Origin: Candidatus Cloacimonadota bacterium | GTDB taxonomy: Bacteria > Cloacimonadota > Cloacimonadia > Cloacimonadales > TCS61 | Direction: 5' to 3' | DNA length: 64,000 nucleotides | NCBI GenBank assembly: GCA_023137125.1 | Contig: JAGLPW010000098.1 | Coordinates: 13,751-77,750, forward strand | Part shown: positions 30,930-63,550 of the stretch, in pieces | Layout of the letters: every line of letters starts with the position of its first letter | How positions within the stretch are numbered: the stretch's first letter is position 1 | Program-made: the position numbers and the translations under genes | The notes under the pieces: model-generated | What the model saw: only the letters and a program-made list of their open reading frames with translations | Told to the model about the DNA's origin: nothing | Databases searched by the model: none

Positions 30930-30941
30930 GAGAAAAGGAAA

Positions 30942-32294: not shown

Positions 32295-32321
32295 TCACTT
32301 CTTCGCTTCAGATCCAAAATC

Positions 32322-32358
32322 GGTGTATGATATTTCAGACACAAGTGTCTAATACACC
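32322..32358. promoter_or_regulatory. Nested inverted repeat GGTGTAT-N8-AGACAC-AA-GTGTCT-A-ATACACC; candidate enhancer (UAS)
   Basis: Read directly. Lies 127-163 nt upstream of the sigma-54 promoter at 32485. A second inverted repeat, TGTATA-N6-TATACA, sits at 32446-32463. Confidence 0.4.
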
Positions 32359-32484
32359 ATAACTTTTTCTTTCATTCACTCATACACAATAGAACTTAAA
32401 ATCAATATAGAACACATCGTAAACTCTTGTTTTTAAAGAAGATATTGTATAGTGAATTATACACGAACTCTATGTGAATGACAC

Positions 32485-32500
32485 TGGCACAGTTTATGCA
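32485..32500 (+). promoter_or_regulatory. Sigma-54 (-24/-12) promoter TGGCACAGTTTATGCA
   Basis: Matches the consensus TGGCAC-N5-TTGCW with GG-N10-GC spacing. The AAGGAGG RBS and the ATG at 32528 follow 28 nt later. Lies immediately downstream of a sigma-54 activator gene. Confidence 0.8.
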
Positions 32501-32527
32501 GTAAAGAAGGTTAACAAGGAGGTAGTT

Positions 32528-33079
32528 ATGAGAACCAAATCTTTTTTAGCCATTTTATTAACAGTTGCCTTTCTAATGACATTCAATTGTCAGATTATTT
32601 CAGCCCAAACCGAGAATCCAAACACGCCAATTCGTTTTTCTGAGCGAAACATGGGAGGACCAAGGTTAGGAATAACCTATATTCCAGGTGATGGTGAACT
32701 TGTGCAGAAATTGAAAGATAATGGCATTGGTAACACTATTAGTCAATTCGGCTGGCACTTTGAATACGCAGTCATTCCTGAAGGCGGTGGCCCATCTTTT
32801 GTAATTGAGTTAATTCCGTTGGTTGGAGGTGTTGAATATGGGAAGTTTGTTCCTAGCGCCACATTAGCCATGGGGGTGCGTATGCCAAACGGTATAGAAT
32901 TTGGCATGGGACCCAATTTACTCTATGGTGGCGGAGATAATGTTAACTCGGCATTGGTACTGGCCATTGGGAAAAGTTTTAATTACGGTGGAGTAAGCAT
33001 TCCGATTAACCTTGTTTTTGTCACGAATCCGGATGGCAATAGAGTCTCAGTTATTTTTGGATATGCTATTGCTAAATAA
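32528..33079 (+). CDS. Exported Gly-rich protein, possibly a small outer-membrane protein
   Basis: 183 aa counted from the ATG with the AAGGAGG RBS. The tracked GTG start at 32474 would overlap the sigma-54 promoter. Signal peptide ...QIISAQ. Confidence 0.6.
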   Translation: MRTKSFLAILLTVAFLMTFNCQIISAQTENPNTPIRFSERNMGGPRLGITYIPGDGELVQKLKDNGIGNTISQFGWHFEYAVIPEGGGPSFVIELIPLVGGVEYGKFVPSATLAMGVRMPNGIEFGMGPNLLYGGGDNVNSALVLAIGKSFNYGGVSIPINLVFVTNPDGNRVSVIFGYAIAK

Positions 33080-38546: not shown

Positions 38547-40046
38547 TTATTTCATAAGGATCATCTTCTTCGTCTTTTCGAAATTATCGGTTTTAAGTTT
38601 GTAGAAATAAATTCCTGAACTTACATGTTTGCCAGAATCATCTTTTCCATTCCAGATAATTGAATGCTGACCGGCTGATAACTGATCCCTGACAAGCTGT
38701 TTCACTTTTTGCCCTTTGATGTTGTAGATATTAAGTGTGACTTTTGAATCCTCTTTGAGAGAATAATTTATGATAGTGGATGGATTGAAGGGATTAGGGA
38801 ATGCATTTAACAAGCCAAAATCATGTGAAAAGTTAGAAAGTTCTTCCTCCACATTCGTTATTCCTTCTGGTGCAAGTTTTACTAAGTACATATCAAAATT
38901 GGTCCAAGTATTGTTTTCAATCCACCCTCCAAATACAAAACCTCCGTCATCGGTCTGTAGAATTGAATTACATACTTGACGGGTACCTTGTATACCACCT
39001 TCACTCATATATTCCCACTCCGAATATCCTAAGGAATTTGTTTTAATTATTTTACTGTGATGAGATGTTCGACAACAACCAATTTCAGAAAATCCACCAA
39101 GGATATATCCACTATCTGAGGTTTGTAAAACACTTTTACCTTCATCGTAACTCATAGAACCAGAATCATATATTTGAACCCAATCTAAACAAACCCAAGT
39201 ATCAATTTTCATAAGAAACATTTCCATTCCATCATAATAGGGCACGTTCGTATATCCACCTAAAATATATTCACCTTCATCAAATACTTGAATCGAATTA
39301 CAACAATCATGTAAGCCGATATCAATTATCCAAGGCCATTCCAAATTTCCGTAACTATCTGTTTTTACTAGGTAAACATCGGTAGGATCCCAATTACCAT
39401 AAACACCACTGCTCCCACCTAGAATGTATCCACCATCTTCAGTTTTATCGATAGAATAACACCTATCATCTAAGCTATCACCGAATGTCTGTTGCCACAA
39501 CAAATCACCCCAAGAATTAACTTTAAGTAAATACATATCATCTTCACCTGCACCAAAAGAGTCTGTATATCCTGCTAAAACACACGTGCTATCTTCTAAT
39601 GTTAACATAGAGTAGCAGACTTCATCACCGGGACCACCATAAGTTCTCGTCCAGAGTGTATCTCCGTTTGAATCAATTTTAACCAAATAGATATCAAGAC
39701 CACATGCTCCAAAGCTTTCAGTGTATCCAGCAGCTATAAAACTACCTCCAACAGACCTTTGGATTGAATAACATTTATCATTTAATGATCCGCCATAAGT
39801 CCTAGTCCACAGAGAATCACCTAGAGAATCTGTTTTAACTATGTAGAAATCATATATTCCACTGCCTTGAGATTCCTCCGTGATACCAGCCATGATGTAT
39901 CCACCATCATCAGTTATCTGAATCGAATTGCATTCATCTTTTCCTGGACCACCGTACATTCTTGCCCAAAGTGTGTCGGGTGCTTGAGCAAAAGTACATA
40001 TAATAAGAAACAGAAACTCTAATAAAAAAAATATTCTTTTTTTCAT
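38547..40046 (-). CDS. Secreted 7-repeat beta-propeller-like protein with a T9SS C-terminal sorting domain
   Basis: 499 aa with a signal peptide. Seven repeats of about 50 aa (W..TYGG...D.C.SI..T.DGGYI.AGYT.SFGAG..D.YLVK.D..GD). CTD AFPNPFNPSTIINYSL...KKMILMK. Confidence 0.75.
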   Translation of the reverse strand: MKKRIFFLLEFLFLIICTFAQAPDTLWARMYGGPGKDECNSIQITDDGGYIMAGITEESQGSGIYDFYIVKTDSLGDSLWTRTYGGSLNDKCYSIQRSVGGSFIAAGYTESFGACGLDIYLVKIDSNGDTLWTRTYGGPGDEVCYSMLTLEDSTCVLAGYTDSFGAGEDDMYLLKVNSWGDLLWQQTFGDSLDDRCYSIDKTEDGGYILGGSSGVYGNWDPTDVYLVKTDSYGNLEWPWIIDIGLHDCCNSIQVFDEGEYILGGYTNVPYYDGMEMFLMKIDTWVCLDWVQIYDSGSMSYDEGKSVLQTSDSGYILGGFSEIGCCRTSHHSKIIKTNSLGYSEWEYMSEGGIQGTRQVCNSILQTDDGGFVFGGWIENNTWTNFDMYLVKLAPEGITNVEEELSNFSHDFGLLNAFPNPFNPSTIINYSLKEDSKVTLNIYNIKGQKVKQLVRDQLSAGQHSIIWNGKDDSGKHVSSGIYFYKLKTDNFEKTKKMILMK

Positions 40047-40093
40047 ATTTTCCCTCCTTTTAAGGAAATACTAAAAGCATTTGGAATAAAGTT

Positions 40094-41668
40094 CTACTTC
40101 ATCAATATCATCTTTTTAGTTTCTTCGTGGTTGTCTGTCTTCAATTTATAGAAATAGATACTACTTGAAACTGATTTACCGTTATCGTCTTTCCCATTCC
40201 AAACAATTGAATGTTGACCATCTGGAAGTTGATCGTTGACAAGCTGTTTCACTTTCTGTCCTTTCAGATTGTAAATCGTTAATTCAACTTCGCTTTCTTC
40301 GGGTAGCTGATAACTTATAGTTGTAGTTGGATTGAATGGATTGGGATAATTTTGATGTAGTTGTGTAAAGCTTGGAATTACTAAATCATCTACACCAACA
40401 ACATTCTGATTTTCATAAGCTCCCATATCAATTCTTCCACCATAAATACGTGAGTTCCCGGCTAGGTCTAATTCAGGCAGATTTAATCCGGTTGTATTGG
40501 GATCACCGGTATTAACACAAGGTGATAGATCTTGCAGCATAAATGGATGATCTCCTGTTCCAACAAATAATGGGTCTTCGTCAATATTGCCAGTACCTGT
40601 CCAACCATCTTGTATATCCGAATATATCACTGTAACTGAGCCAGAAAAAATATAGATCTGTTCTGGTAAATTATCCCATAAAATGCAATTAACTAAACTT
40701 GAATTGGAACTGATGCTGTTACAAATTCCTCCACCTTGATCATAGGAAAGATTTCCAACTATTGTGCAATTAATGATCTCTGATTGCGAATTCGAAACTA
40801 GAATTCCACCACCAACTCCATCGCAATTATTTCCACTAATTAAGCAGTTGATAATATTTGCATCAGAATCCTGAATAGCTAAACCACCTACATTGTCTCC
40901 TAATGCTGAATTTCCTCTTATGATATTACATACAAATGTTGGAGAACTATTTAGGATTAATACTCCACCAGTTGTTATATTTGAAGAATTGTTTTCAATT
41001 ATGTTATTAATGAAAGTAGGATAACTTAATTCAATTGACACACCTCCAGTATGCCCCTGAGCAAAATTGTTTGAGATGATATTACCTTCAACGTAAGCAT
41101 TGGAGTTTTGGTAGAACTCAAGACCACCACAGTTCAAGGTTGTAGATGTATTGTAGGAAATTACATTATCGATGATCCTGGGATTAGAACTGTAAGCACA
41201 ACTTACTCCTCCAGTATAGTCTGCACTATTTTCAGTTATTATATTGTTACAAATAGTAGGAGATGAGCCACTCATCCAAATTCCTCCAGCAATTGTTCCC
41301 CAACCAGGATCGAGTGTGCCAGTACCTTCTGTAAGTGTAAAACCGATTATAACAGAGGTTGTATCTTCGTTAGATGTAAATCGTACACACGAGCCAAGAT
41401 CAGGATTCGTAGCTTGGCTGCCGTTAATGATTGTGTTTTCGATATGAAGTGGATCAGCATCAATCAGGAAATTACTCGCTACAGTAATCGGCTTACTTAT
41501 AAAATCGATATTTTCAAAATAAGTTCCATCTGCCACCAATACCGTATCTGTGTCGGCAGCAGCGACAATTCCTGCCTGGATCGTCGGTTGATCGGCAGGA
41601 ACGTTGATGATGGTTGAGTACAAACAAGTTGTTATTAACAAAATAAAAATTGGTATTAGCTTTTTCAT
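40094..41668 (-). CDS. Secreted right-handed beta-helix (PbH1 repeat) protein with a T9SS CTD
   Basis: About 524 aa counted from the ATG at 41668 (AAGGAGG RBS). Signal peptide and PbH1-type repeats. DMGAYEN is followed by the CTD NYPNPFNPTTTISYQL...KKMILMK. Confidence 0.75.
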   Translation of the reverse strand: MKKLIPIFILLITTCLYSTIINVPADQPTIQAGIVAAADTDTVLVADGTYFENIDFISKPITVASNFLIDADPLHIENTIINGSQATNPDLGSCVRFTSNEDTTSVIIGFTLTEGTGTLDPGWGTIAGGIWMSGSSPTICNNIITENSADYTGGVSCAYSSNPRIIDNVISYNTSTTLNCGGLEFYQNSNAYVEGNIISNNFAQGHTGGVSIELSYPTFINNIIENNSSNITTGGVLILNSSPTFVCNIIRGNSALGDNVGGLAIQDSDANIINCLISGNNCDGVGGGILVSNSQSEIINCTIVGNLSYDQGGGICNSISSNSSLVNCILWDNLPEQIYIFSGSVTVIYSDIQDGWTGTGNIDEDPLFVGTGDHPFMLQDLSPCVNTGDPNTTGLNLPELDLAGNSRIYGGRIDMGAYENQNVVGVDDLVIPSFTQLHQNYPNPFNPTTTISYQLPEESEVELTIYNLKGQKVKQLVNDQLPDGQHSIVWNGKDDNGKSVSSSIYFYKLKTDNHEETKKMILMK

Positions 41669-41716: not shown

Positions 41717-41990
41717 ATAAAAAAATTATTTCTACCAGTAACTTAATTCGTAAAATAATAGGCAGTTACGTGATTTGTGGTTGTTAATAAAAATCTTAAT
41801 TTAAAGCTAAAAAATTCAAGAAGCTTTAGAATTTTATTAAAGTTTCTTTAGTTTTTTTAAATTGACAAGTAATTACATAAAACCTGATTTTGAAAATGGT
41901 TGTAAGATTTATATCTATAAGTTAATAGTTCTATTGTTTTTGCTAGTGTTATGCCAATCAGTGAATTAAATTTTATTACTAAGAGGCATT

Positions 41991-44900: not shown

Positions 44901-45446
44901 GAAAAACTTAGTATTATAAATTCATCATTAAGTATGGGTAAGATCCATTATTATCAAAAAGAATATAGAAGAGCTTTGGAATATTATGAAAGAGCGATTT
45001 CTCTGACAAATGAAATGGAATTGTGGATAAAGCTTCCATATATTATACTTCAAAAAGCGAAGATCAAGTATGAGCTGAAGGAATATGAAAACGCCCTTAA
45101 ATTTTCCCAAAAGGCAGATCATTTAGCTTATAAAATGAAAAATGAAGTCAGGATTTTTGAGTGTAAGTTAATGAAAATTAAAATCTTATTTAAAACTACT
45201 ATAAATAGAGAACTAAAAATAAAAAATTGCATAGAACCACTTGAGGAATTACTGGAACAAGTAAAAGATGAAGAACAAATAGCTGAAATTAATTATGAAT
45301 TAGCTGTTATGTATAGCGAATTTAAAAAGAAAACTGAAGTAGAAAAACATATAAAAAAAGGAATATCTCTATATGAAAAGCTTTATAAAAAAACTCCTAA
45401 ATTTGAATATAAAAATAAAATGGAATGCTTACAGAATTTAAATTAA
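41991..45446 (+). CDS. Ser/Thr protein kinase fused to an AAA/STAND-type NTPase and a long TPR array
   Basis: 1151 aa. Hanks kinase motifs (GKGTFGKVYK, HRDLKPQNILL, GTPAYSSPE; DFD in place of DFG). P-loop LGESGIGKS, then DDLQWAD. TPR repeats run from about residue 700 to 1000. Confidence 0.85.
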   Translation: MNWEKIVSKKLIGKGTFGKVYKVTDEKGTIWALKIIDKQYHKFRIQFKSAFEITMKINDINYVKAYQWLSDKDVSWVMEYVEGKPISALRFSDEFNLDEILKVMIQVCNGLMALHSKNIIHRDLKPQNILLNSNNIIKITDFDFIKIEQTGKQMSQFIGTPAYSSPEHFISSYDLDIRSDLYSLGVILYELVTGKLPIEGKDAKEIGDKHRLKPIILPTKINPLIPEGVEKIITGLLEKNPKDRYQHAHAVAMDLFKEIKNKKGIKVKEDIPYLLKPRFVNRVISLKTLNELSDELESKNGKVVLVLGESGIGKSKLIQQFYHYLQFQNVDFYYSVCKLVEHSFEPLSSIFEEILSAKTETKKRKYFGKFGWDLIKFGILAEKEWMNKIEKPVELSGKSAEIRLFNTMTNFIQKAAAKPLVICIDDLQWADEIILKWLIYAERNLKEFPVLIVGLHRTEQLIEDSLILKIENLIQIRINNLKCVDVSDMIRSMLGKKSSSKELDNFIKSIITHTKGNPLFIREILYYLQEKKKITIENNKWKFPLDPEIKDLPSDIHMIILERIHELSSETLITLQTASVIGKQFSFEMLMYMTKKSDNELLDDLIDCREVSLIEGSGNDYIFIHDKVREVVENEVKEKYPSFWKELHLKAGEFLEEKYSSNPDEVLDDMANHYLVAGIRDKSVKYCQLAGDKAGDRFIFNKALYYYGYVKQIISKERKSINKNEQEYTELSNRLFDVQINIIDIFRWTGQWEKALENAEFTLKMAEDLNDKKYLAIALNKIGLQYFYKGLYREAMEIFRRYLTIDRKIGFELGKSTAYANMGIIHLNQGDLKKALTCFENELKIVRKLGNIREESFAYGYIGNVYFGYGNLTKACEYYNKKLHIAEKSGDKLAICEVLGDIGSIFFRKGNYDKAMDYYKKNLIIAEEIGYKRRISVAVGLMGNVHFVRGEYEKARKCYNQKMKIAEALDEKLSIINSSLSMGKIHYYQKEYRRALEYYERAISLTNEMELWIKLPYIILQKAKIKYELKEYENALKFSQKADHLAYKMKNEVRIFECKLMKIKILFKTTINRELKIKNCIEPLEELLEQVKDEEQIAEINYELAVMYSEFKKKTEVEKHIKKGISLYEKLYKKTPKFEYKNKMECLQNLN

Positions 45447-45550
45447 ATACCTGATGTTTAATATTTATATGTATCTAATTATTAAATCTAAAAACTTTAC
45501 AAGAATTTTGCTGATTGAAATTTTAAATAAATGTAATTGGAGTATTTATT

Positions 45551-47020
45551 ATGACACGAAAAAAAAAGGATAATTATCATAATTTGTTAGATTATTTATA
45601 TTCATCAGTTGATAATTTCAAACCTGGATCCGCTTATGAATTATTATTAGCGATCTTAAGTGCTCAGTTAAATGCAGATTGCTGCCTTCTTATTAATAAA
45701 TATGAACAGATATTATACAAATCTCCTACTTTAATAGATACTGAGTTCAGTCATACCATTTTAAAAAAGGCAATAGAAAATAATGAATCCTGTTATATTC
45801 AAAATGCTGTAGATGAAAGTGGATTGAAAAATATAGAAAGTATTGCCGGACATATTTTCTTATCTGTAATATGTATTGTTTTGCATGACCAAGATAATGA
45901 AATTGTGGGAGCTTTGTATTTGGATAGACATAACCTGGAAAAGAAGGATTTTAATATTTATGATCTCAGGCAAGCAGAAGAATTTGCCAAAAATTTTTCC
46001 AACATCTTGATAGATGAAGGTCTTGAAAAAATGGAATTAACCAGGTTACGTAATGATTATGGTTTTGAGGGATTGATCGGCAAAAGCGATTCAATGCTGA
46101 GCATCTTCGAACAGATACACAAAGTTGCCCCAACTGAGTCTAACGTATTTTTGCAGGGAGAAACAGGAACGGGAAAAGAATTGGTTGCTAGAGCGATTCA
46201 TAGAAGAAGCAAACGTGCTGATTGTCCATTTATCGCTATCAACTGTTCAGCAATTCCTAAAGAGCTTTTGGAGAGTGAATTATTCGGACATGAGAGAGGC
46301 TCCTTTACCGGAGCAACGAACAAACGGAAAGGTAAATTTCAATTAGCACATAGAGGAACTTTATTTCTAGATGAGATTGGAGAATTGGAGCCAAATCTTC
46401 AAACCAAGATATTGAGAGCGTTACAGGAAAGGGAAATTCAACCGGTTGGCAGTGAGAAGATTGTTAAAGTCAATATACGCCTGATAACAGCATCCAGCAA
46501 ACAAATTACTAATGAAATCCGAAAAGGAAATTTCCGGAAAGATCTGTTTTATAGAATTAATTCCTACCAGATATTTCTTCCACCTTTAAGAGAACGTGGG
46601 AATGATATTATTTTACTGGCAGAACATTTTATCACCAAATATTGTATTGAAAATGGCAATTATATTCCTCCTCCTTATTTCACAAAAAAAGCAAAAGAAA
46701 AACTTCTTTTCTATTTCTGGGAAGGAAACGTTCGAGAAATCCAAAATACTATGGAAAATTTATCAATAAACTATACAGAGGGTAAAATAATAACTGATGA
46801 TCAACTCAAGTTTTACCCTATTGGATCTGATGACACACAAAGAGCTCAAAATAACATTTCATTAAAAGCAGCTGCTGAACAAACTGAAAAAGAGCTTATA
46901 GAATCATGTTTGATAAAACACAATTGGAGAAAGAATAAAGTAATAGAAGAACTTAATACTACTTTTCCGACGTTAGTAAAAAAAATGAAAAAATACGGAC
47001 TGGAGAAAAAATCACAATGA
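45551..47020 (+). CDS. Sigma-54-dependent transcriptional activator with an N-terminal GAF-like sensor domain
   Basis: 489 aa. Walker A GETGTGKE. GAFTGA-variant loop HERGSFTGA. Also RKDLFYRIN and a C-terminal HTH. Confidence 0.85.
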   Translation: MTRKKKDNYHNLLDYLYSSVDNFKPGSAYELLLAILSAQLNADCCLLINKYEQILYKSPTLIDTEFSHTILKKAIENNESCYIQNAVDESGLKNIESIAGHIFLSVICIVLHDQDNEIVGALYLDRHNLEKKDFNIYDLRQAEEFAKNFSNILIDEGLEKMELTRLRNDYGFEGLIGKSDSMLSIFEQIHKVAPTESNVFLQGETGTGKELVARAIHRRSKRADCPFIAINCSAIPKELLESELFGHERGSFTGATNKRKGKFQLAHRGTLFLDEIGELEPNLQTKILRALQEREIQPVGSEKIVKVNIRLITASSKQITNEIRKGNFRKDLFYRINSYQIFLPPLRERGNDIILLAEHFITKYCIENGNYIPPPYFTKKAKEKLLFYFWEGNVREIQNTMENLSINYTEGKIITDDQLKFYPIGSDDTQRAQNNISLKAAAEQTEKELIESCLIKHNWRKNKVIEELNTTFPTLVKKMKKYGLEKKSQ

Positions 47021-47136: not shown

Positions 47137-47404
47137 GATTAGGGATGAGGGATGAGGGATTAAAAACGAGATGTGGCTTTGTGAAACAAAACGCATCGGT
47201 TTTATTGATGAGGGATGAGGGGTTACAAATTAGAGATTAAGAAACAAGATGTGGTTTTACGAAGTAAAACGCTTAAGCGTTGGCTTGTGAGTGGAATGAA
47301 CAAACGAAGCAATAATAAACTTAACTTTTTAATAAACTATCGGTTTTTGATGAGGGATTAGAAATTAGAAATTAGAAATTAGGAATTAGGGATTAGGGAT
47401 TAAC
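47137..47404. repeat. Heptamer tandem arrays (GATGAGG / GATTAGG / AATTAGA) interspersed with two hairpin units
   Basis: Arrays at 47137-47161 (3.5 units), 47207-47222 and 47349-47404 (8 units). Each is preceded by (CGG)TTTT(A)TTGAT. Confidence 0.8.
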
Positions 47405-47436
47405 TTAATTTTGTAATATTTCTTATTCATAGAATA

Positions 47437-47472
47437 TAGAAAAGAAAAGTGAAATCTTTTGCAAGATTTCAC
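47437..47472 (-). terminator. Rho-independent terminator GTGAAATCT-TTTGCA-AGATTTCAC followed (minus strand) by TTTTCTTTTC
   Basis: Perfect 9-bp stem. Part of a ~112-nt module that is ~95% identical to 58522-58633. Confidence 0.8.
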
Positions 47473-47532
47473 TTTATATTATATTAACTTATTTCATTAA
47501 GATTTATAAGCCTCAGGCTTACAAGTCCACCA

Positions 47533-52871: not shown

Positions 52872-53876
52872 TTATTTCAACAAGATCATCTTCTTAGTGG
52901 AAGTATAAGTGCCTGCTTTTATTTTGTAGAAATAAACTCCTGAAGAAACAGGTTTTTTTTCTTCATCGTCTCCGTTCCAGACAATCTGATGTATTCCTGC
53001 ACCAATTTTTTCATTAACTAACGTCTTAATCTTTTGTCCTTTCAGATTGTAAATGTCAAGATTCACAAACGATGACGTTTGTGCAACCGAAAAGGAAATC
53101 GTAGTCGTCGGGTTGAACGGATTTGGATAGTTACCGATGAGGTCAGTTGAAGGTACTATATCGTTTCCTGCACCAGTTCCTGTGTAAGTAAAATCTATCT
53201 CAATAATTTCGGAAGTACCCTCATCATAAACCGCAGAAACACCTGCCAAGTAGGTTTGTTCATTTACCAGGTCTTCAAATTGAAATTCTGTATCTGTGAT
53301 ATTTTCCAGAAATATTGAATCAAGGTAAATGTCATACCCCGTCAGAACTCTGGAAACAGGAGCATCCCAGGTAAAGAGACCTGTTCCTTCATCTACTGCC
53401 AGATTTTCAGGTGGCAATGTCTGATCAAAAGAAGCGATTGCTTCCGGTACCATATTCAAAGCTTGTTGGTAATAATTACTGCCATACATCAAGATATTGT
53501 TGGCTCCTATAACGATAAAGAAAGGGACATATCCATTTCCAAAATCCCAATAATAATCATCAATTTCAGTAGCAAAAGGCATTGACCAACCAATATCTGA
53601 CCAATCAAACGTGCAAATAAAATATATCTCATCCGGGTTTTGAGTTCCCCACCATGTATTCATAAACGGCGCCGCCGTATAACAGCCACCTCACCAATCT
53701 TCTCCCCAGAAAATTAATATGGCTTTACCAGCCGCTGTAAGTTCATGTATCGAATGATATTCACCATTACTGTCTGTCCATGAATAGTCATCGGTAATTG
53801 GCTCGCCAACTTGCCAAACTGCAAACAATGATATTGTCAACAGCAACATAACGAATACTAATAATTGCTTTTTCAT
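52872..53876 (-). CDS. Thioredoxin-fold (TlpA/ResA-like) protein with an in-frame UGA (probable selenocysteine, UGGC redox motif), an FN3-like domain and a T9SS CTD
   Basis: Tracked ORFs 53691-53876 and 52872-53663 are in the same frame, separated only by a TGA (53691-53693) and 9 sense codons. Merged reading: ...GKAILIFWGEDW-U-GGCYTAAPFMNTWW... Signal peptide at the N-terminus. A SECIS-like hairpin lies downstream of the UGA. Confidence 0.7.
53663..53681 (-). other. SECIS-like stem-loop UAUACGGC-GGC-GCCGUUUA, 13-31 nt after the U of the in-frame UGA
   Basis: Four G:C pairs plus A:U extensions with one U-U mismatch. The apical loop GGC places its Gs at +21/+22. The GC-only 13-mer ACGGCGGCGCCGT stands out in AT-rich DNA. 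Confidence 0.6.
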
Positions 53877-53904: not shown

Positions 53905-55818
53905 TTATTTCATCAAGATCATTTTCTTTGTAGAAGTATATACTCCAGATTTCAATTTGTAAAAATAGATTCCCGAAGAAACAGGTTTGTTGTTTTCATC
54001 ATCTCCATTCCAGACAATCTGATGTATCCCTGCATCCATTTCTTCATTAACCAAAGTCTTGACCTTCTGTCCTTTCAAATTATAGATTATCAGCTCTGTG
54101 CTTTCCGTGTTCTCTGTGGTTAAAGAAAAAGAAATCGTAGTAGTAGGGTTGAACGGATTAGGATAGTTTTTAATCATCTGTATGGCACCTTGTGGCAAGT
54201 TTTCTGATATGCCTACGCCAGAATCACCAAAACCTATAACAGAATACTCTTCCAAAATTGTATTATTGATAGTATCATGATACATCATCCGACCTCCAGC
54301 AAAAACTTCTTCTGTAGAAGGATTAATATCAACACTATTACCCCATTGAGGTCCTATTGCTCCCGGAAAGTTTTCAAATTCTTCATCTATCAAACTCCTC
54401 CAATAAACATCTCCTGTTTCGGCATCCAGCTTTACTGTAATCCAATCTTGCATGGTCGGGAAGATAGGGGGTGGAACTGTATAACTTTGAACAGCATTAT
54501 GGGTTTCTCCAGTTGCAATAACATAACCGGAAGGATCAAAAACCATATCATTGAGCCAATCATTTCCATAAGTATCATTTGGGTCTCCATCAAATTCATA
54601 TACCCAGTCTAATGTTCCGTCAGCAGCATCAAATCTTGCAATACAAAAGTCAACTGATAGACTACCATTGCTGAGAGTTTCGTTTGAAACAAAACCACCA
54701 CCAAAAATTGCATCGCTTGCGTCATCATAAACCAGATACTTACAAATATCAGTTGAGTCAATAAGTCCATTTACCGTAGTACTGACCCATAAAAATTCCC
54801 CATCCTGCGTGTCTATTTGTGCAACTGCAAAATCTTTACCGGTTGTTGATCCGGCCGGTCGTGATAAACCACCTACAAACAGTTCATCACTACTGTTCAT
54901 TGTAAGATTCCATGCCCATAGCGGATTATTATATAAACTTGAGGTTCCATTTGTCCATATGATATTACCATCCGAATCTAATTTTATTACAGAATTTTCT
55001 TCAACACCTACTTCTTCAATAAATTCTCCCTGAACATAAATATTTCCCAGATCATCCGTCTCAACATTTCTGCCACTTCCAAACCGTTCCCCAACTTCTT
55101 TCAACCACAACAGGTCACCATCGCTATTCAGTTTATATATGCCGCAGAATTGATGCGGAAAACCCTGATAATATCTTTGGATAAGCGATACAACAATAAC
55201 ATTGTTGTCGTTGTCCGTTGTAACCCCAAATCCCCAATCGGCAACAGGAAGACTAAAATCCCCTGCAAAATGCCGCGTCCATATAGTATCCTGAGTTGTT
55301 CGATCAAATTTAATGACCATAACATTCTGGCTTGAACCCGGGTAATATGACCGACCGGTAATAACAACATTTTCCTCCTCATCAATAACCATATCATAAG
55401 TTTGTCTGGGAAAATGACCTGAAGTTGTTTGATAAATATTCTTGGTATAATTAACATCTCCGTTGGCTGCGTTAAATTCAATAAAGGTGAGACTTTCATT
55501 ATCTTGTGTGCCCACAGTGAGTACGGTATTATTGCCAGGTTCATAATATACTTCATCACATTGACTCCAATCCGAAGGTAAGTCTGTGTAATGCCATAGG
55601 ATTTCAGGCTCAGTCCGCTCTCTCAATCCATGTGAATTTGTGCTGTTGTTGTGAAGTTTCGTAGTATCTGTTTCATACAATTGACTGTCAGGAATATCTT
55701 GTAAGAAACCGTTTTCATCATATTGCATTTCTGCAAAATCATCCATTCTCCATTGTTGAGCATAAATATTTGCTGTAAACAAAAGAGATACCGCCAAAAT
55801 CAAAATTAAATGTTTCAT
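53905..55818 (-). CDS. Secreted beta-propeller-like protein with a T9SS CTD
   Basis: 637 aa with a signal peptide. Repeated W-anchored blades (IWTRHFAG, LWLKEVG, IWTNGTS, LWVSTTV, DWVYEFDG, YWRSLID). CTD NYPNPFNPTTTISFSL...KKMILMK. Confidence 0.7.
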   Translation of the reverse strand: MKHLILILAVSLLFTANIYAQQWRMDDFAEMQYDENGFLQDIPDSQLYETDTTKLHNNSTNSHGLRERTEPEILWHYTDLPSDWSQCDEVYYEPGNNTVLTVGTQDNESLTFIEFNAANGDVNYTKNIYQTTSGHFPRQTYDMVIDEEENVVITGRSYYPGSSQNVMVIKFDRTTQDTIWTRHFAGDFSLPVADWGFGVTTDNDNNVIVVSLIQRYYQGFPHQFCGIYKLNSDGDLLWLKEVGERFGSGRNVETDDLGNIYVQGEFIEEVGVEENSVIKLDSDGNIIWTNGTSSLYNNPLWAWNLTMNSSDELFVGGLSRPAGSTTGKDFAVAQIDTQDGEFLWVSTTVNGLIDSTDICKYLVYDDASDAIFGGGFVSNETLSNGSLSVDFCIARFDAADGTLDWVYEFDGDPNDTYGNDWLNDMVFDPSGYVIATGETHNAVQSYTVPPPIFPTMQDWITVKLDAETGDVYWRSLIDEEFENFPGAIGPQWGNSVDINPSTEEVFAGGRMMYHDTINNTILEEYSVIGFGDSGVGISENLPQGAIQMIKNYPNPFNPTTTISFSLTTENTESTELIIYNLKGQKVKTLVNEEMDAGIHQIVWNGDDENNKPVSSGIYFYKLKSGVYTSTKKMILMK

Positions 55819-55982
55819 AATTTTTTCCTCCTGTTTTTTTTAATTTTCTTTTCATTACATTTTTTCTGCTTATCTACTGCTATCGATACATTAGATTCCT
55901 TTTTCTTTTTAACATTATCGAATTGCTTTAGCAATAAATCATCATCTTCAATTGATAGGGGAATAATCAATTTATCTCTCAT
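55815..55982 (-). CDS. Possible 55-aa Lys-rich leader ORF, translationally coupled (ATGA overlap) to the 637-aa gene
   Basis: My own translation: MRDKLIIPLSIEDDDLLLKQFDNVKKKKESNVSIAVDKQKKCNEKKIKKNRRKKL. GGAGG RBS 6 nt upstream. The ATG lies 37 nt after the sigma-54 -12 element. Confidence 0.4.
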   Translation of the reverse strand: MRDKLIIPLSIEDDDLLLKQFDNVKKKKESNVSIAVDKQKKCNEKKIKKNRRKKL

Positions 55983-56019
55983 TAAAACCTCCACATTTTT
56001 TTATTTGTAACACTTAGAA

Positions 56020-56035
56020 GCATTTGTTGTGCCAA
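56020..56035 (-). promoter_or_regulatory. Sigma-54 promoter TTGGCACAACAAATGC (minus strand)
   Basis: TGGCAC-N5-ATGC with GG-N10-GC spacing. Same TGGCACA-N4-ATGC form as the sites at 32485 and 63284. Confidence 0.8.
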
Positions 56036-56145
56036 TATGCATCGGAAAGGTTAATGATGAGATAATATGCGTGTAACTTAGTTACCGATAGGCAATTACA
56101 GTTACCTCGAAAATTAATATAGAAATAAAGTAGGATTAAAAATAG

Positions 56146-56257
56146 TCGCAAATATGCGAAAATAAATTGTATAATTTACATAATATATGAGTTATCTTAT
56201 TTAATAGCTTGAGGTTAAAAATATTCGCATGAAATTGTGTGATTCGCAAATATGCGA
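56146..56257. promoter_or_regulatory. Two identical 17-mers TCGCAAATATGCGAAAA (inverted repeat TCGCA-N4-TGCGA) at 56146 and 56244; candidate bEBP enhancer sites
   Basis: Read directly. The copies are 98 bp apart and sit 111 and 209 nt upstream of the sigma-54 promoter, directly downstream of the TPR-bEBP gene. An extra half-site, TTCGCAT, is at 56224. Confidence 0.6.
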
Positions 56258-56318
56258 AAAAAGACGACCTATTCTTTCTCTGATTTACCGGTTATATGAA
56301 TGAAGATATACTTTACAA

Positions 56319-58439
56319 TTATTCAGATATTTTCTTTTTTAATATTCTATAGATTTGAGATTTGTTCAATTTTCCAAGTTCACATGCTTTAGGAATATCT
56401 TGATCAGATACATTTAGTAATTTATTTACATATTTCAAATCCAAATCATCACCCATTTTGGTTTTGAATAATTTATAATCTGACCAATCTATTGGAAACT
56501 CATCAATAGAAGCTGTTTCTGTTTTATGAGCCGCAGCAACAAAAAGCTCAATATGAAGCGTATCTTGTCCGCAGAGCAAAACCGCTTTCTCAATTTCATT
56601 TTCCAATTCACGAATATTACCCTGCCATGGTAGTGAAAGCAGATAATTAAGTGCGTCAGCAGATACTGTTTTGATCTTCTTACTGAATTTTTTATTGTAT
56701 TTTCCGATGAAATGATTCACCAGAGGTGGAATATCAATTTTACGCTCTTTAAGAGCGGGAATTTCTATTTTTATTACATTCAATCTGTAAAACAGATCTT
56801 CCCTGAATTCTGAATTGTCTATCATTTCCTGCAGATCTCTGTGAGTGGCGGATATTATTCTGATCGAAACAGGAACAGGTTTTGTGCTTCCTACCGGTGT
56901 GACAGTTCGTTCCTGAATTACCCGCAGCATTTTGGATTGCAGCGAAAGCGGCATATCTCCAATCTCATCCAAAAAAAGAGTACCGTTGTTCGCCATCTCG
57001 ATCTTTCCCTTTTTATTTTTATCTGCTCCCGTAAAAGCTCCTTTTGCATAGCCAAAAAGTTCACTTTCTAAAAGATGCTCCGGAATTGCTGAGCAATTGA
57101 TTGCAACGAAAGGTGAATTCTTCTTATATTTTCTGTGTATTGCTTTGGCAACAAGTTCTTTCCCGCTTCCCGTTGGTCCTGTTATCATCACATTTACATT
57201 ATGCTCTGCAACCATATTTATCATAGAAAAAACATCATTCATTATTTTACTTCTACCAATAATTTCCGGGAAATCAAACTTTTTATCCGCATTGTCTTCA
57301 ATAAACAGGTTATCTATTTTTTGCATTTGAACATTTGCAATTTTTCGTGCTGTTTCAATGTTCAGAATACTTTCTTTAATTTCAAAATATTTTTTTTGAT
57401 ATTTATAAGCTTTTGCAAAATCATCTAATTTAAAATAGATTTCGTTTGCAACTTTAAAGGTATTCAATTTTATTGTTTTTACATTCAATTCTTCTACTAA
57501 TTCTATTGCTTGATCAATATAACTCAATGCTGTATCAAATTTACCTATATAAAAATAAACTTCTCCGAGATTGCAAAGAATTGGTGACCATGAATACTTA
57601 TCCGATTTATCAATGTACTGCTCTGCTTGCAAAAAATAGGTTAAAGCAGATTCGTATTTTTTTTGAATTATATATATTTCACCAATATTATTTAAAGAAT
57701 ATGCTATGAATTTCTTATGATTTTCTTTTTTGAAAATAGTTAACGCCTTCTGATAATATTGATAAGAAAGATCATAATCTTTTGTGGAAGTGTGTGTTAG
57801 ACCAATATTCAAAAAGACAGAGGCTAGCAATATTTGATCATCATATGTTTCACTAATTTCAAGAGCTTTTTGATGATATTTAATTGCTCTATCATATAAA
57901 CCTACACTATTAAAGTTGTTTCCAATATTGGTAAGTGCGGCAATAATATTACGAGTATTATCTTCCTTCTTAGATTCATTTAATAAATAGAAAAGCGTTT
58001 CCAGTGATTTCTCATAATTTCCTACTTCATCATAAGCTCTTCCGAGATTTAAAGCTGAATTTGTATGGAATTTTTTGTCATCCAAAGTAGAACTTGCATT
58101 GAAACTCAAAGTGAGATATTTTATTGCTTCATCAAAACTATTTGTCCTCATGAAAGTATCACCAACATAATAATAACACTTAATAATATTTGTTTTATCT
58201 CCCAGAAGCTCAAAAATTTTGAGAGCTTGCTTGAATAAGCTGTTAGCTTTTAAGAACTCAGAAAGCTGATGGTAACTTATTCCGAGATCATAATAAAGCT
58301 TTGCTCTTTCGGCATCATCTTCTATCAAACTTATTTGTCCTGAAACTTTTACGGCAAGTTTTAGAGATTCTTTGGGAGAATCTTTTAAATTTTTCTTAAT
58401 TTTCTCTATAGATTTATTAATATCATCTTTCCTTTTCAT
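56319..58439 (-). CDS. Sigma-54-dependent activator with a ~370-aa N-terminal TPR sensor domain
   Basis: 706 aa. TPR repeats throughout the N-terminal half. Walker A GPTGSGKE, YAKGAFTGA, REDLFYRLN, and a C-terminal HTH (IPKACELGKLNKSQIYRILKK). Confidence 0.85.
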   Translation of the reverse strand: MKRKDDINKSIEKIKKNLKDSPKESLKLAVKVSGQISLIEDDAERAKLYYDLGISYHQLSEFLKANSLFKQALKIFELLGDKTNIIKCYYYVGDTFMRTNSFDEAIKYLTLSFNASSTLDDKKFHTNSALNLGRAYDEVGNYEKSLETLFYLLNESKKEDNTRNIIAALTNIGNNFNSVGLYDRAIKYHQKALEISETYDDQILLASVFLNIGLTHTSTKDYDLSYQYYQKALTIFKKENHKKFIAYSLNNIGEIYIIQKKYESALTYFLQAEQYIDKSDKYSWSPILCNLGEVYFYIGKFDTALSYIDQAIELVEELNVKTIKLNTFKVANEIYFKLDDFAKAYKYQKKYFEIKESILNIETARKIANVQMQKIDNLFIEDNADKKFDFPEIIGRSKIMNDVFSMINMVAEHNVNVMITGPTGSGKELVAKAIHRKYKKNSPFVAINCSAIPEHLLESELFGYAKGAFTGADKNKKGKIEMANNGTLFLDEIGDMPLSLQSKMLRVIQERTVTPVGSTKPVPVSIRIISATHRDLQEMIDNSEFREDLFYRLNVIKIEIPALKERKIDIPPLVNHFIGKYNKKFSKKIKTVSADALNYLLSLPWQGNIRELENEIEKAVLLCGQDTLHIELFVAAAHKTETASIDEFPIDWSDYKLFKTKMGDDLDLKYVNKLLNVSDQDIPKACELGKLNKSQIYRILKKKISE

Positions 58440-58521
58440 TTCGACCTCACACTAAACTTACTTCAGTATCAAAATGAGTTATTTTTTTGTCTAATGATTT
58501 TTTATTTCTACATATTAAAGG

Positions 58522-58633
58522 GATTAGAGATTAGGGATTAACTTTATTTTGTAATATTTCTTATTTATAGAATATAGAAAAGAAAAGTGAAATCTATTGC
58601 AAGATTTCACTTTATATTATATCAACTTATTTC
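58522..58633 (-). repeat. Conserved 3' module (heptamers + terminator GTGAAATCT-ATTGCA-AGATTTCAC + last CTD codons), paralogous to about 47384-47497
   Basis: About 5 mismatches over ~112 nt by eye. Terminator hairpin at 58587-58610. Confidence 0.8.
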
Positions 58634-60606
58634 AGAAGAATCATTTTCTTTGTTTGTTCAAGGCTACCTGATTTTAATTTGTAGAAATATAAACCACTGG
58701 AAATAGGTTTTCCGTTTTTATCATCTCCATTCCAGACAACCTGATGTATTCCTATATCCAATTTTTCATTAACTAAAGTTTTAACTTTTTGTCCTCTTAA
58801 ATTATAGATTATCAATTCCGTGTTCTCTGCGCTTTCTGTGGCTAACGAAAAAGAAATGGTTGTTGTCGGATTAAAAGGATTGGGGTAATTGCTGATCAGG
58901 GCTGTGGTTGTAAAAATCTCGTTACCAGCGCTCACGATATTAGGTACAAAATCAATTGTAACCATAACAGATTCACCTTCATCATAAACTGCAACAACAC
59001 CGGCTTCGTAGGTAGTTCCATTTATTAGGTCTGTGAATTGCCATTCCGTATCTATAGTGTTACCTTCCTGCTCGCCATCGAGGTAAACATTATAACCTAT
59101 AGGATCTACTGAAGAAGGAGCATCCCAGGTAAATTGTCCGTTAGCTTCATCTACAGTTAGATTTGTAGGAGGAAATAAGGGAGAACTGATCACGGCACCT
59201 ACTGCATCATCGGCATTTACCATCCCATATCCAGTGTACCTATCCCAACCCGGAGTTGGTTCTTCATCGATAATATCCGTAGTAGTGGAAGTGAGATAGA
59301 ACCTAACTTCTGCCGGTGTGAGGGTAGGATTTTTAGATTTGATAAGTGCTGCAACACCAGCAGCATAGGGAGTAGCACAAGAAGTACCAGCAAAGAGCAT
59401 AAAATAATCTCCTTGAGTAAATCCGCTAACTCCGATAACATCAGTAGTTGGAAGAATTGTTGGAGCAACCAGATCAACAGCATCTCGAGCATCTTGGATA
59501 TCAACACCATAACTCGACCCCCACCACATTTGTCCATCACAAGAAGTAGGACTTTTTCTTTCTGCACAAGGAGAAGCTGCACCCACGGCAATAACATGTT
59601 CATCATTTGCAGGATGAGAAATATATGGTTCATTGAAGTTTTGAGTACACGCCAATAGTGTAACGCCATTATCATAGGCATAAGCAATTGCTGCATCGGC
59701 AGAAGGGTTGGAACCTTGCTGTCCTTCGAATCCAAAACTCATACTGGCGATATCGACCCCATAATCTCCGCAATGCGTTAATGCATTGTTAATAATTGTT
59801 TGAGTTACAGCACCATTATAGGGTGAAATTTTTAAAGGCATGATACTACAGCCTCCTGCTACACCAGAAATACCAATTCCGTTATCTACTGCTGCCGCTG
59901 CTATACCAGCACAACAAGTACCGTGCCCTGCATCCATAAAACTATCATCCATCGGGTCATCATCATTGTCTCCGTAATCATAACCGGGAACACAATTATC
60001 GATCAAATCTTCATGATTGTAATCTACACCTGAATCTATGATAGCTATGATAATGTCGGGATTACCATAGCCTTGATCGTCATCCCAGGCCTCTTCTATA
60101 TGAGAGTCAAATCCAATTACTTGTCCGCTTCCGGGTCCGTTTAGCTCTGTATTATCATGTCCCCAGCAGTCATCAAAGTACGGATCATCGGGTGTAACAG
60201 AAAGATAATATATATATTCCGGATTAGCAAACTCGACATATTCATTATTTTTATAATATTTTATTGCATCCTCAATATCTGTTTTTTCGGGAACAAAGAA
60301 TAGGTACCAGCGAGCAAAACCGGTTTGCTGCTCCCAGACTTTATCATTTACTGGTCTGTGGGCCAGGATTATCTTTGTAACGTCATACTCGACATTCAAG
60401 GCATCTAATGTTTCTAAACCTGTTTGATCGATTTGTTCGTTATTTTGAAGTAATGCATTAATCTTTTCGGAAGCTTCTTCATTCAATTTTACTTTGATCC
60501 GATCGGAAGCATAAAGCTTTCTACCGTGACTGTCCAATATGATTCCTGTTGCAAATATAGAATTTATCAATAAAAATAATATAAGAAAAAATATTAATCT
60601 TTTCAT
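58627..60606 (-). CDS. Secreted S8 subtilisin-family serine peptidase with an FN3-like domain and a T9SS CTD
   Basis: About 659 aa counted from the ATG at 60606 (AGAGGAG RBS). Catalytic triad contexts IAIIDSGVDYNH, HGTCCAGIAAA, GTSCATPYAAGVAAL. CTD NYPNPFNPTTTISFSL...KKMILLK. Confidence 0.85.
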   Translation of the reverse strand: MKRLIFFLILFLLINSIFATGIILDSHGRKLYASDRIKVKLNEEASEKINALLQNNEQIDQTGLETLDALNVEYDVTKIILAHRPVNDKVWEQQTGFARWYLFFVPEKTDIEDAIKYYKNNEYVEFANPEYIYYLSVTPDDPYFDDCWGHDNTELNGPGSGQVIGFDSHIEEAWDDDQGYGNPDIIIAIIDSGVDYNHEDLIDNCVPGYDYGDNDDDPMDDSFMDAGHGTCCAGIAAAAVDNGIGISGVAGGCSIMPLKISPYNGAVTQTIINNALTHCGDYGVDIASMSFGFEGQQGSNPSADAAIAYAYDNGVTLLACTQNFNEPYISHPANDEHVIAVGAASPCAERKSPTSCDGQMWWGSSYGVDIQDARDAVDLVAPTILPTTDVIGVSGFTQGDYFMLFAGTSCATPYAAGVAALIKSKNPTLTPAEVRFYLTSTTTDIIDEEPTPGWDRYTGYGMVNADDAVGAVISSPLFPPTNLTVDEANGQFTWDAPSSVDPIGYNVYLDGEQEGNTIDTEWQFTDLINGTTYEAGVVAVYDEGESVMVTIDFVPNIVSAGNEIFTTTALISNYPNPFNPTTTISFSLATESAENTELIIYNLRGQKVKTLVNEKLDIGIHQVVWNGDDKNGKPISSGLYFYKLKSGSLEQTKKMILLK

Positions 60607-62820: not shown

Positions 62821-63093
62821 TTATAAAAGAAGTGTTCTCTTCGGTGAAATGTAACTTCCGTTAGTTATTTGATAATAGTATATGCCGTTCAGAACTTTAT
62901 TTCCTGAATTATCTGTTCCGTCCCATTTCATATTATGCTCACCCGATTTTATCTTTTCGTTGAGAATTGTTTTGATCAGCTCATTATCAAAATTGTAGAT
63001 CTGAACCTTGGTTTTATATTTTTCCGTTTTTGAGAAAAATAAAATGTTTATCCAATTTTCAATCGGTTCCGGCATACTCCAATGTACTCTCAT
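62821..63093 (-). CDS. Orphan 90-aa protein consisting essentially of a degenerate T9SS/FlgD-Ig-like CTD, without a signal peptide
   Basis: Starts at the ATG at 63093 (GGTGGAG RBS). INILFFSKTEKYKTKVQIYNFDNELIKTILNEKIKSGEHNMKWDGTDNSGNKVLNGIYYYQI...KRTLLL aligns with the CTDs of its neighbours. Confidence 0.5.
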   Translation of the reverse strand: MRVHWSMPEPIENWINILFFSKTEKYKTKVQIYNFDNELIKTILNEKIKSGEHNMKWDGTDNSGNKVLNGIYYYQITNGSYISPKRTLLL

Positions 63094-63283
63094 TTTTTTT
63101 CTCCACCTTTTACACACTTCTATTTTTTTTGAGGTAGGATTTATTCCCCATAAGAACCACAAATCAATCGGTTCGTTTGGAGAACCAACCCTACCATTAA
63201 TAACGAACCAGTTCTCATTGTATTACACCCAGACAAGACGCCACTACATGCAAAAACTTATGCTCGTATGGTGATGATAATCA

Positions 63284-63299
63284 GCATTTGCTGTGCCAA
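63284..63299 (-). promoter_or_regulatory. Sigma-54 promoter TTGGCACAGCAAATGC (minus strand)
   Basis: TGGCAC-N5-ATGC with GG-N10-GC spacing. A leader of about 190 nt precedes the ATG at 63093. Confidence 0.75.
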
Positions 63300-63432: not shown

Positions 63433-63550
63433 GAAACATATTTGTTTCAGACTATAAATAATTTAATTTCTTTTCGGTGTTAATTTACTGTATTCAAATT
63501 AGTTATGCTTGGTAGTTTCTGTTTTGTTTCTTTAGAAACAAAAATGTTTC
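63433..63550. promoter_or_regulatory. Palindromes GAAACA-TATT-TGTTTC (63433-63448) and TGTTTC-TTTA-GAAACA-AAAA-TGTTTC (63525-63550); candidate bEBP enhancer sites
   Basis: Read directly. The GAAACA-N4-TGTTTC copies are 102 bp apart and sit 134 and 236 nt upstream of the promoter at 63284, directly downstream of the second TPR-type bEBP gene. Confidence 0.55.

Follow-up and report, generated by a model that had tools for sequence, protein, structure and literature searches.

Bacterial enhancer-binding proteins (bEBPs) of the NtrC/NifA class, including NtrC4 and NtrC1 of Aquifex, ZraR and NifA, activate sigma-54 promoters by means of an AAA+ domain that bears the GAFTGA motif and a dimeric C-terminal DNA-binding domain of the Fis type. 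Their signals are received by receiver, GAF, PAS or V4R domains, and they act from dyads located 100-250 bp upstream of a GG-N10-GC promoter, with the regulator gene lying beside the target operon. The spacing between bEBP sites is typically 2-3 helical turns. In the PspF-PspA and HrpS-HrpV pairs, the regulon of the bEBP includes the gene for a small protein that controls this bEBP. As for type IX secretion, the PorX/PorY-SigP system of Porphyromonas joins an extracytoplasmic function (ECF) sigma factor to a two-component system and acts on the genes of the secretion machinery. In the PEP-CTERM system PrsK/PrsR/PrsT, an activator motif and a sigma-54 site precede genes whose products have a common C-terminal sorting signal for a dedicated export or sorting system. 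Many such genes, at scattered positions, are served by a single motif; the activator is a response regulator with a receiver domain and works together with a histidine kinase, and a tetratricopeptide repeat (TPR) protein, in this case a separate lipoprotein, is counted among the regulatory components (PMC1569441, Haft et al. 2006). The present report concerns a stretch of 64,000 nucleotides from a Candidatus Cloacimonadota bacterium (GenBank assembly GCA_023137125.1, contig JAGLPW010000098.1, positions 13,751 to 77,750), hereafter the window, and within it a minus-strand module (module 1) in which a gene for a bEBP with a TPR domain (TPR-bEBP) lies upstream of an operon of type IX secretion system (T9SS) cargo genes.

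Many Bacteroidota-related bacteria secrete their main degradative enzymes as T9SS cargo, and the control of cargo expression is known for a few cultured species only. Module 1 is probably a self-contained enhancer-dependent (sigma-54) transcription unit. If so, at least some cargo operons of Cloacimonadota would be under tight sigma-54 on/off control, each with a private TPR-type activator encoded immediately upstream.

A putative enhancer and sigma-54 promoter beside the activator gene

A sequence-only reading of this stretch had proposed that two identical 17-mers, TTTTCGCATATTTGCGA, situated 98 bp apart (56244 and 56146) after the activator gene, are the enhancer for the adjacent TPR-bEBP, which would then drive a cargo operon from a sigma-54 promoter. 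All of the elements listed in it lie on the minus strand where it had placed them, including the half-site TGCGA at 56229..56225, the GG-N10-GC promoter at 56035-56020, the GGAGG with an ATG 37 nt on, and four closely spaced genes running down to 47533, whose coordinates and domains are as found here. This reading as a whole finds support in four comparisons: a conservation footprint, the constancy of the arrangement at 13 family loci, covariation of the dyads with the recognition helix of the activator together with the specificity of the dyads, and the ranking of the promoter by an independent matrix.

Within the window, the two copies of the 17-mer, which have the core TCGCA-TATT-TGCGA, are the sole matches even when up to three mismatches are allowed, and TCGCA-N4-TGCGA with up to one mismatch returns the same two sites only. 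When the 336-bp intergenic region was shuffled 20,000 times, an exact direct repeat of at least 17 nt arose in 2 of the shuffled sequences. The distal dyad is centred ~217 bp upstream of the promoter GG (roughly -242 from the predicted transcription start) and the proximal one ~119 bp upstream (roughly -144), so that both dyad-symmetric sites fall within the range of ~80-250 bp that is characteristic of bEBP enhancers. The footprint was taken from L004 (family loci are given here by L numbers), which comes from another metagenome and encodes an activator that is 81 % identical in protein and 84 % in DNA. In the L004 intergenic region, 33 of the 34 dyad bases are kept (16/17 and 17/17) against an overall identity of 71 % (binomial P ~1.4e-4), with identities of 62 % between the sites and 53 % upstream of site 1, and the dyads are 99 bp rather than 98 bp apart. 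The block CAATTTCATGCGAA, in which the extra half-site sits, is perfectly kept. The palindrome GTAAC-TAA-GTTAC, also listed in the sequence-only reading, is in place, but a functional part for it, as an IHF-like or other site, was rejected, with 8 of 13 bases kept in L004 and GTAAC/GTTAC missing from the interval in 9 of 13 family loci.

Each of the 13 family loci gathered has, downstream of a TPR-bEBP gene and on its strand, a sigma-54-type promoter and Por_Secre_tail genes. The distal dyad lies 217-245 bp upstream of the GG at every one of these loci, and the proximal dyad lies 116-143 bp upstream of the GG (119-121 bp in L004, L167 and L169) and 98-103 bp from the distal dyad at 12 of them, the proximal site being uncertain in L165. 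The distance from dyad to dyad is thus far more constant than that from dyad to promoter. Extra half-sites adjoin the distal dyad at most loci, the window included, and they also follow it in the paralogous modules that have GAAAC-type dyads, namely a second module of the window (module 2), L086 and L173. The L166 activator has a C-terminal extension, and as a result its coding sequence takes in, at the 3' end, the distal dyad (9100-9117).

The promoter, TGGCACAACAAATGC, ends 37 nt before the ATG and has the GG-N10-GC form of sigma-54 promoters; transcription is predicted to start near 56008. When a weight matrix trained solely on the 11 promoters of family loci on non-window contigs was run over the window, TGGCACAACAAATGCT (56034) ranked second of 128,000 positions. 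The three best matches score 24.8, 23.1 (the present site) and 18.1 bits, and the fourth, at 16.0 bits, is inside a gene; shuffled sequence yields 0.08 matches of at least 16 bits. The same three top sites are the only exact matches to TGGCAC-N5-WTGC in the window, at 32485(+), 56020(-) and 63284(-), and each is intergenic, oriented toward the next gene and directly downstream of a bEBP gene. The promoter is conserved at orthologous and paralogous loci across the 13. Its counterpart in L004 is TGGCACAGTAAATGCT, with 13 of 15 bases of the -24/-12 element kept, and the family consensus, TGGCACA-N4-WTGCT, agrees with the classical sigma-54 consensus.

Covariation of the dyads with the recognition helix

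Across the 13 loci, the sequence of the dyad varies along with that of the C-terminal recognition helix of the adjacent activator. The helix NKSQ[IL]YRIL occurs with TCGCA-N4-TGCGA (window, L004/L085) or TCACA-TAAT-TGCGA (L167), and PKSQIYRIL with TCTCA-TATT-TGAGA (L169). Among the paralogs, ERAQIYRLL is paired with TGAAAC-N6-GTTTCA (window module 2, L086, L173, L171 and L170), DRAQIYRLL with GAGAC-N6-GTCTC (L166), [GA]RTQ[VI]YRLL with TGACAC-N6-GTGTCA (L168, L172), and DRTQIYRLI with GTGACA-N4-TGTCAC (L165/L087). For L169 and for L170/L171/L173, the dyad type was predicted from the helix before the results were obtained. Rather than being scattered, the dyads are nearly confined, in pairs, to their cognate intergenic regions, with two strays in 236 kb of family loci; in 1.38 Mb of unrelated loci the background is 0-0.15 per 100 kb.

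The TPR-type activator

Pfam analysis of the activator identifies Sigma54_activat (PF00158, 1.8e-71, residues 393-559), AAA_lid_14 (1e-22, the lid covering residues 564-642) and TPR_12 (8e-38), along with many other TPR families across residues 40-330. The translation contains Walker A (GPTGSGKE), Walker B (LFLDEIGD) and, at residues 467-472, the GAFTGA loop that contacts sigma-54, and the columns of all three motifs are invariant across 24 homologs; by its AAA+ sigma-54 interaction domain and these motifs, the protein belongs among the bEBPs. A full-length AlphaFold model shows a TPR superhelix of nine repeats (residues 1-376, pLDDT ~90), joined to the AAA+ domain by a flexible linker (residues 371-393). 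At the fold level, residues 652-701 form a three-helix DNA-binding domain like those of Fis and NtrC4. An AlphaFold model of the last 62 residues (645-706; pLDDT 88.3) consists of a long helix and then a helix-turn-helix, and its best Foldseek match in the PDB is the DNA-binding domain of NtrC4 (probability 0.97, TM 0.62-0.64, rmsd 1.1-1.2 A), followed by Fis, NtrX, NtrC1 and ZraR, with nearly all of the top 30 matches being of this kind. NCBIfam alignments to PrdR, PrsR, NorR, GlrR and LuxO likewise extend to residues 701-703. None of the equivalog cut-offs of the 25 listed NCBIfam models, which include PrdR, PrsR, NtrC, NifA, NorR and RtcR, is reached by the protein, the score against cut-off being 353/795 for PrdR (the best), 310/502.6 for PrsR and 308/559 for NtrC.

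An identical protein is encoded on metagenome contigs, including ERZ23498471 scaffold_40 (112 kb). The TPR-bEBP family appears to be small and restricted to the Cloacimonadota lineage, because full-length relatives (660-711 aa, 44-81 % identity) amount to ~25 clusters at 90 % identity, and the close homologs, wherever the source names them, are from Candidatus Cloacimonadota or Cloacimonetes. When genome contigs were scanned with the full-length alignment, the AAA+ motifs drew generic bEBPs from many phyla, and only L020, of a different architecture, was from Cloacimonadota. In a scan of metagenome contigs with a TPR-only alignment, the true family members were L085-L087 only, the others being unrelated TPR proteins.

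Objections and alternative explanations

Several observations weigh against the enhancer-dependent reading of module 1. The C-terminal helix-turn-helix that the sequence-only reading had assigned to the activator holds at the level of fold but not as a Pfam HTH_8 domain: there is no HTH_8 match at E <= 0.01 in the last 103 residues, a PDB profile (sequence) search with the C-terminus gave no helix-turn-helix match, and an hhalign comparison with the HTH_8-positive C-terminus of a bEBP from the window was negative. The Foldseek E-values are themselves weak (at least 0.65), because the domain is short. In the full-length AlphaFold model the TPR domain is confident and the AAA+ core is of low confidence, and no inference was drawn on contacts between them. 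An RpoN box (RRT[VI]xKYR) was not found in the six reading frames of the window, in L001 or in 1.64 Mb of fetched loci; the genome is nonetheless expected to have rpoN, because 64 kb hold three complete GAFTGA bEBP genes and one partial paralog, in addition to the conserved promoters. The dyad spacing of ~100 bp corresponds to roughly 9.5 helical turns, which would put the sites on opposite faces of straight DNA, and it is unlike the usual close-packed arrangement of bEBP sites. From the stop codon of the bEBP gene to the promoter there is no strong terminator, and read-through could contribute to operon expression. Finally, the 13 family loci are related by descent and not fully independent, and the evidence is computational throughout.

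The dyads might instead be operators for another DNA-binding protein, be it a repressor or the other bEBP encoded at 45551-47020. That second bEBP has a recognisable HTH_8, its gene lies convergent to the end of the operon, and the helix-turn-helix of the TPR-bEBP itself is the one that Pfam misses. Yet the dyads track the recognition helix of the adjacent TPR-bEBP in 13 loci on many contigs and hold a fixed position beside its gene, to the point of lying inside its 3' end in L166, while at other family loci none of the genes called in up to 7 kb around the regulator encodes the 489-aa bEBP; operators for a different protein are accordingly improbable. A reading of the 17-mers as RNA hairpins, acting as weak terminators or as 3'-end stabilisers of the bEBP mRNA, draws on a terminator scan that flags the proximal copy (a 5-bp stem, then CTATTTTTAA), on the folding of both copies at -6 to -7 kcal/mol (z ~ -3.3), and on there being no other terminator after the bEBP gene. 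The stems, however, are just 5-6 bp against 12-13 bp in the true terminators at this locus, the distal copy is without a T tract and that of the proximal copy is not kept in L004 (CTACTACTAA), and two copies at a fixed ~100-bp spacing and a fixed distance from the promoter are unexpected of terminators. With its weak stems and unconserved T tract the terminator role was rejected, and an RNA function as a whole is very improbable.

It is harder still to credit a chance GG-N10-GC next to a local duplication, with a sigma-70-type promoter, or read-through of the bEBP gene, accounting for transcription of the operon. A consensus scan does find promoter-like hexamers throughout this AT-rich region, and no strong terminator would block read-through, but the sigma-70-like matches number 15 against 17.4 expected in shuffles, the sigma-54 site is the second-best in the window by an independent matrix and is conserved at 13 loci, and the shuffles described above seldom produce such a repeat. 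The enhancer-dependent reading therefore remains the preferred one.

Operon genes and boundaries

The features of module 1, together with the regulatory sites of module 2, are listed in Table 1. The GGAGG, at 55992..55988, is 5 nt upstream of the first ATG (55982), and the stop codon of the first open reading frame (ORF) overlaps the ATG of the propeller gene (ATGA); the gaps thereafter are 28 nt between the propeller gene and the TGA-containing frame, and 11 nt between that frame and the C25 peptidase gene. A T9SS C-terminal domain (CTD) is present on all three of the larger operon proteins, Por_Secre_tail being matched at 8e-7 in the propeller protein, 5.5e-8 in the 263-aa part of the TGA-containing frame and 2.3e-8 in the peptidase, and TIGR04183 of NCBIfam reaches 43 bits against a cut-off of 23. 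The in-frame TGA (53693..53691) has the thioredoxin-like context W-U-G-G-C, with a signal peptide upstream of it and the fn3 domain and CTD downstream, and the frame may encode a secreted selenoprotein cargo. T9SS machinery is encoded in the same window, in the form of a 2036-aa protein that contains SprA_N (translocon SprA; 16814-22924).

Two near-identical terminator-like hairpins with stems of 12-13 bp bracket the regulator gene and its operon, and the one at 58584..58613 separates module 1 from the paralogous module upstream. A repeat of ~150 bp, ~95 % identical, follows both cargo operons (58480-58640 and 47340-47500, minus strand) and holds the terminator hairpin AAAGTGAAATCTTGCAAWAGATTTCACTTT and a run of CTAATCC/CTAATTT heptamers. 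An Rfam scan of the window returned one tRNA and nothing else.

Table 1. Coordinates of module 1 and of the module 2 regulatory sites in the window
Feature	Position	Strand	Remarks
TPR-bEBP gene	56319..58439	-	706 aa; Pfam and translation
Distal enhancer dyad (putative) TTTTCGCATATTTGCGA	56244..56260	-	16/17 kept in L004
Extra half-site TTTCATGCGAA	56224..56234	-	TGCGA at 56229..56225; adjoins distal dyad
Proximal enhancer dyad (putative) TTTTCGCATATTTGCGA	56146..56162	-	17/17 kept in L004
GTAAC-TAA-GTTAC palindrome	56073..56085	.	In place, probably not functional
Sigma-54-type promoter TTGGCACAACAAATGC	56020..56035	-	GG 56033-56032, GC 56021-56020; GG-N10-GC spacing
55-codon first ORF	55815..55982	-	No signal peptide; Lys-rich tail
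Propeller protein, 637 aa	53905..55818	-	Beta-propeller-like; Pfam PQQ_2, FlgD_ig, Por_Secre_tail
335-codon frame with in-frame TGA	52872..53876	-	fn3 domain and T9SS CTD
C25 peptidase, 1775 aa	47533..52860	-	Gingipain-like; Peptidase_C25 1e-53, Propeptide_C25, Por_Secre_tail
Terminator-like hairpin and T tract, end of cargo operon	47446..47475	-	-14.8 kcal/mol, z = -6.9
Near-identical terminator-like hairpin upstream of bEBP gene	58584..58613	-	-13.5 kcal/mol, z = -5.8
Module 2 dyads GAAAC-N6-GTTTC	63550..63535 and 63448..63433	-	102 bp apart
Module 2 promoter TGGCACAGCAAATGC	63298..63284	-	Downstream of second TPR-bEBP gene

The small first ORF

Neither Pfam nor NCBIfam gave a match to the 55-codon ORF. 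In L004 and L085 it is conserved in length, in frame, in its Shine-Dalgarno sequence and in the ATGA overlap. The next cargo gene at those two loci is not orthologous to the propeller gene of the window, the CTD alone matching. Because the ORF is kept while the cargo gene that follows it is exchanged, it is to be assigned, on this comparison, to the regulatory cassette and not to the cargo. Similarly, with the first cargo gene swapped between cassettes of 84 % DNA identity (L004/L085 versus the window), the regulator, enhancer, promoter and small ORF behave, as judged from these sequences, as a portable unit. First ORFs at other loci are diverse. Similar small Lys-rich proteins are encoded in L086, in L171 and, as an in-frame extension, in L166; the first ORFs of module 2, L173, L165 and L170 encode 88-91-aa proteins that consist of a CTD only and have no signal peptide; a stand-alone receiver domain takes the place of the small ORF in L168 and L172; and L167 and L169 are without it. 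An N-terminal pattern, M-x-x-[KH]-[WL]-x-x-P with acidic residues after it, recurs in several of the paralogous modules.

The small ORF product is a possible ligand of the TPR domain or a possible anti-activator. A more specific version, in which the TPR domain would be the receptor for the signal-peptide-less product of the first gene (55 aa here, the 90-aa CTD-only protein in paralogs), is hinted at because the ~100-bp dyad spacing is fixed and the first ORF stays with the regulator cassette, and it is unlikely overall; if it were true, a feedback circuit on the lines of PspA-PspF or HrpV-HrpS would tie cargo transcription to the state of type IX secretion. A TPR peptide receptor of the RRNPP type was considered and rejected. 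Such receptors go with an adjacent gene for a small secreted pro-peptide, and the 55-aa product has no hydrophobic signal sequence; the regulator bears an AAA+ module for sigma-54, and not every family locus has the ORF.

Other modules in the window

The second TPR-bEBP gene, that of module 2, continues past the end of the window; the paralog is seen in full (704 aa, 59 % identical) in L001. Between the module 2 promoter and its first ORF there is a leader of ~190 nt (63090-63272, minus strand), compared with 45-64 nt in homologous modules. This leader is strongly structured (-48.4 kcal/mol, z = -3.65), has no Rfam match, and could be an insertion or a regulatory RNA. The first gene after it (62821-63093, minus strand) encodes ~90 aa that are essentially a T9SS CTD (FlgD_ig/Por_Secre_tail), with neither signal peptide nor passenger. 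Similar CTD-only first genes are present in L173, L165 and L170, and the products of all of them would be cytoplasmic.

Beyond the C25 peptidase gene, a Ser/Thr kinase fused to a STAND ATPase and TPR repeats is encoded at 41991-45446 (plus strand) and is followed by the 489-aa bEBP gene (45551-47020). The kinase gene diverges from two T9SS cargo genes (41667..38547, minus strand), and the shared intergenic region contains a weak GG-N10-GC site, TGGCATAACACTAGCA (41956..41941, minus strand; 12.2 bits). Another sigma-54 cargo module, distinguished by its sensor, may be located at 41717-47020. At 28437-33079 (plus strand), genes for a histidine kinase with a PDZ domain and for a response regulator of the NtrC type are followed by a nested palindrome (32326-32361) and by the third of the sigma-54 promoters (32485). 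The operon downstream of this promoter codes, among others, for outer-membrane beta-barrel and Omp85 proteins, a GNAT protein and a radical-SAM enzyme.

Proposed mechanism and significance

In the proposed mechanism, the TPR-bEBP would be made from its own transcript, bounded upstream by the terminator at 58613..58584, and dimers of its Fis-type C-terminal domain would bind the two TCGCA-TATT-TGCGA dyads plus the adjoining half-site. A ligand, probably a protein or peptide, would act on the nine-repeat TPR domain and lead to assembly of the AAA+ ring, which would reach the sigma-54 holoenzyme at TGGCAC-N5-ATGC through DNA looping; the GAFTGA loops would then contact sigma-54, with ATP being used for promoter opening. 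The resulting transcript would carry the 55-codon ORF and the genes for the propeller protein, the thioredoxin-like UxxC protein and the C25 peptidase, and would end at the hairpin 47475..47446. The analysis shows which domains the regulator contains, that the sites and the promoter are in place, unique and conserved, that the arrangement runs through the family, and that helix and dyad covary; binding of the regulator to the dyads, the looping, the nature of the signal and the position of the start are inferred. Because the spacing is fixed at ~100 bp and extra half-sites stand beside the distal dyad, it may be speculated that a single hexamer is built from two dimers at a composite distal site and one at the proximal site, over bent DNA.

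Since the paralogs have diverged in both the recognition helix and the DNA dyad, the family would constitute a ready-made table of helix-to-site specificities for Fis-type domains, and it would also be a clean example of insulation between duplicated regulatory modules. The ~100-bp dyad spacing and the TPR sensor are concrete features that can be tested without culturing the organism.

Comparison with known systems

The mechanism is of the standard enhancer-dependent kind. Literature searches found no paper linking sigma-54/RpoN to T9SS cargo, none on sigma-54 in Cloacimonadota, none describing TPR-type bEBPs, and nothing on the control of T9SS cargo expression in Cloacimonadota. What is new, in that it is not described in the literature searched, is the family itself, its T9SS class of targets, the private pairing of helix and dyad in each of the tandem paralogs, the geometry of two dyads at a fixed distance, and the small ORF that travels with the regulator.

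With NtrC4, NtrC1, ZraR and NifA, the present activator has in common the GAFTGA-bearing AAA+ domain, the Fis-type C-terminal domain, the placement of dyads upstream of a GG-N10-GC promoter, and a regulator gene beside its target operon. It differs from them in its sensor, a TPR superhelix of ~376 aa, in the fixed ~100-bp distance between its dyads, and in having T9SS cargo genes as targets. A likeness to PspF-PspA and HrpS-HrpV lies in the first gene of the operon, whose small cytoplasmic product could act back on the activator; no homology of the small ORF to PspA or HrpV was found, and L167 and L169 are also without the ORF. With PorX/PorY-SigP, the likeness is that of a dedicated transcriptional control tied to type IX secretion, but the system described here is sigma-54 based and would act on cargo operons. 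The closest conceptual precedent is the PEP-CTERM system, in which a sigma-54 site and an activator motif likewise stand before sorting-signal genes and a TPR protein is likewise involved. Here, by comparison, TPR domain and activator form a single protein, no kinase is involved, the T9SS CTD serves as the sorting signal, and each paralog has a private dyad through which it is predicted to act in cis on the neighbouring operon.

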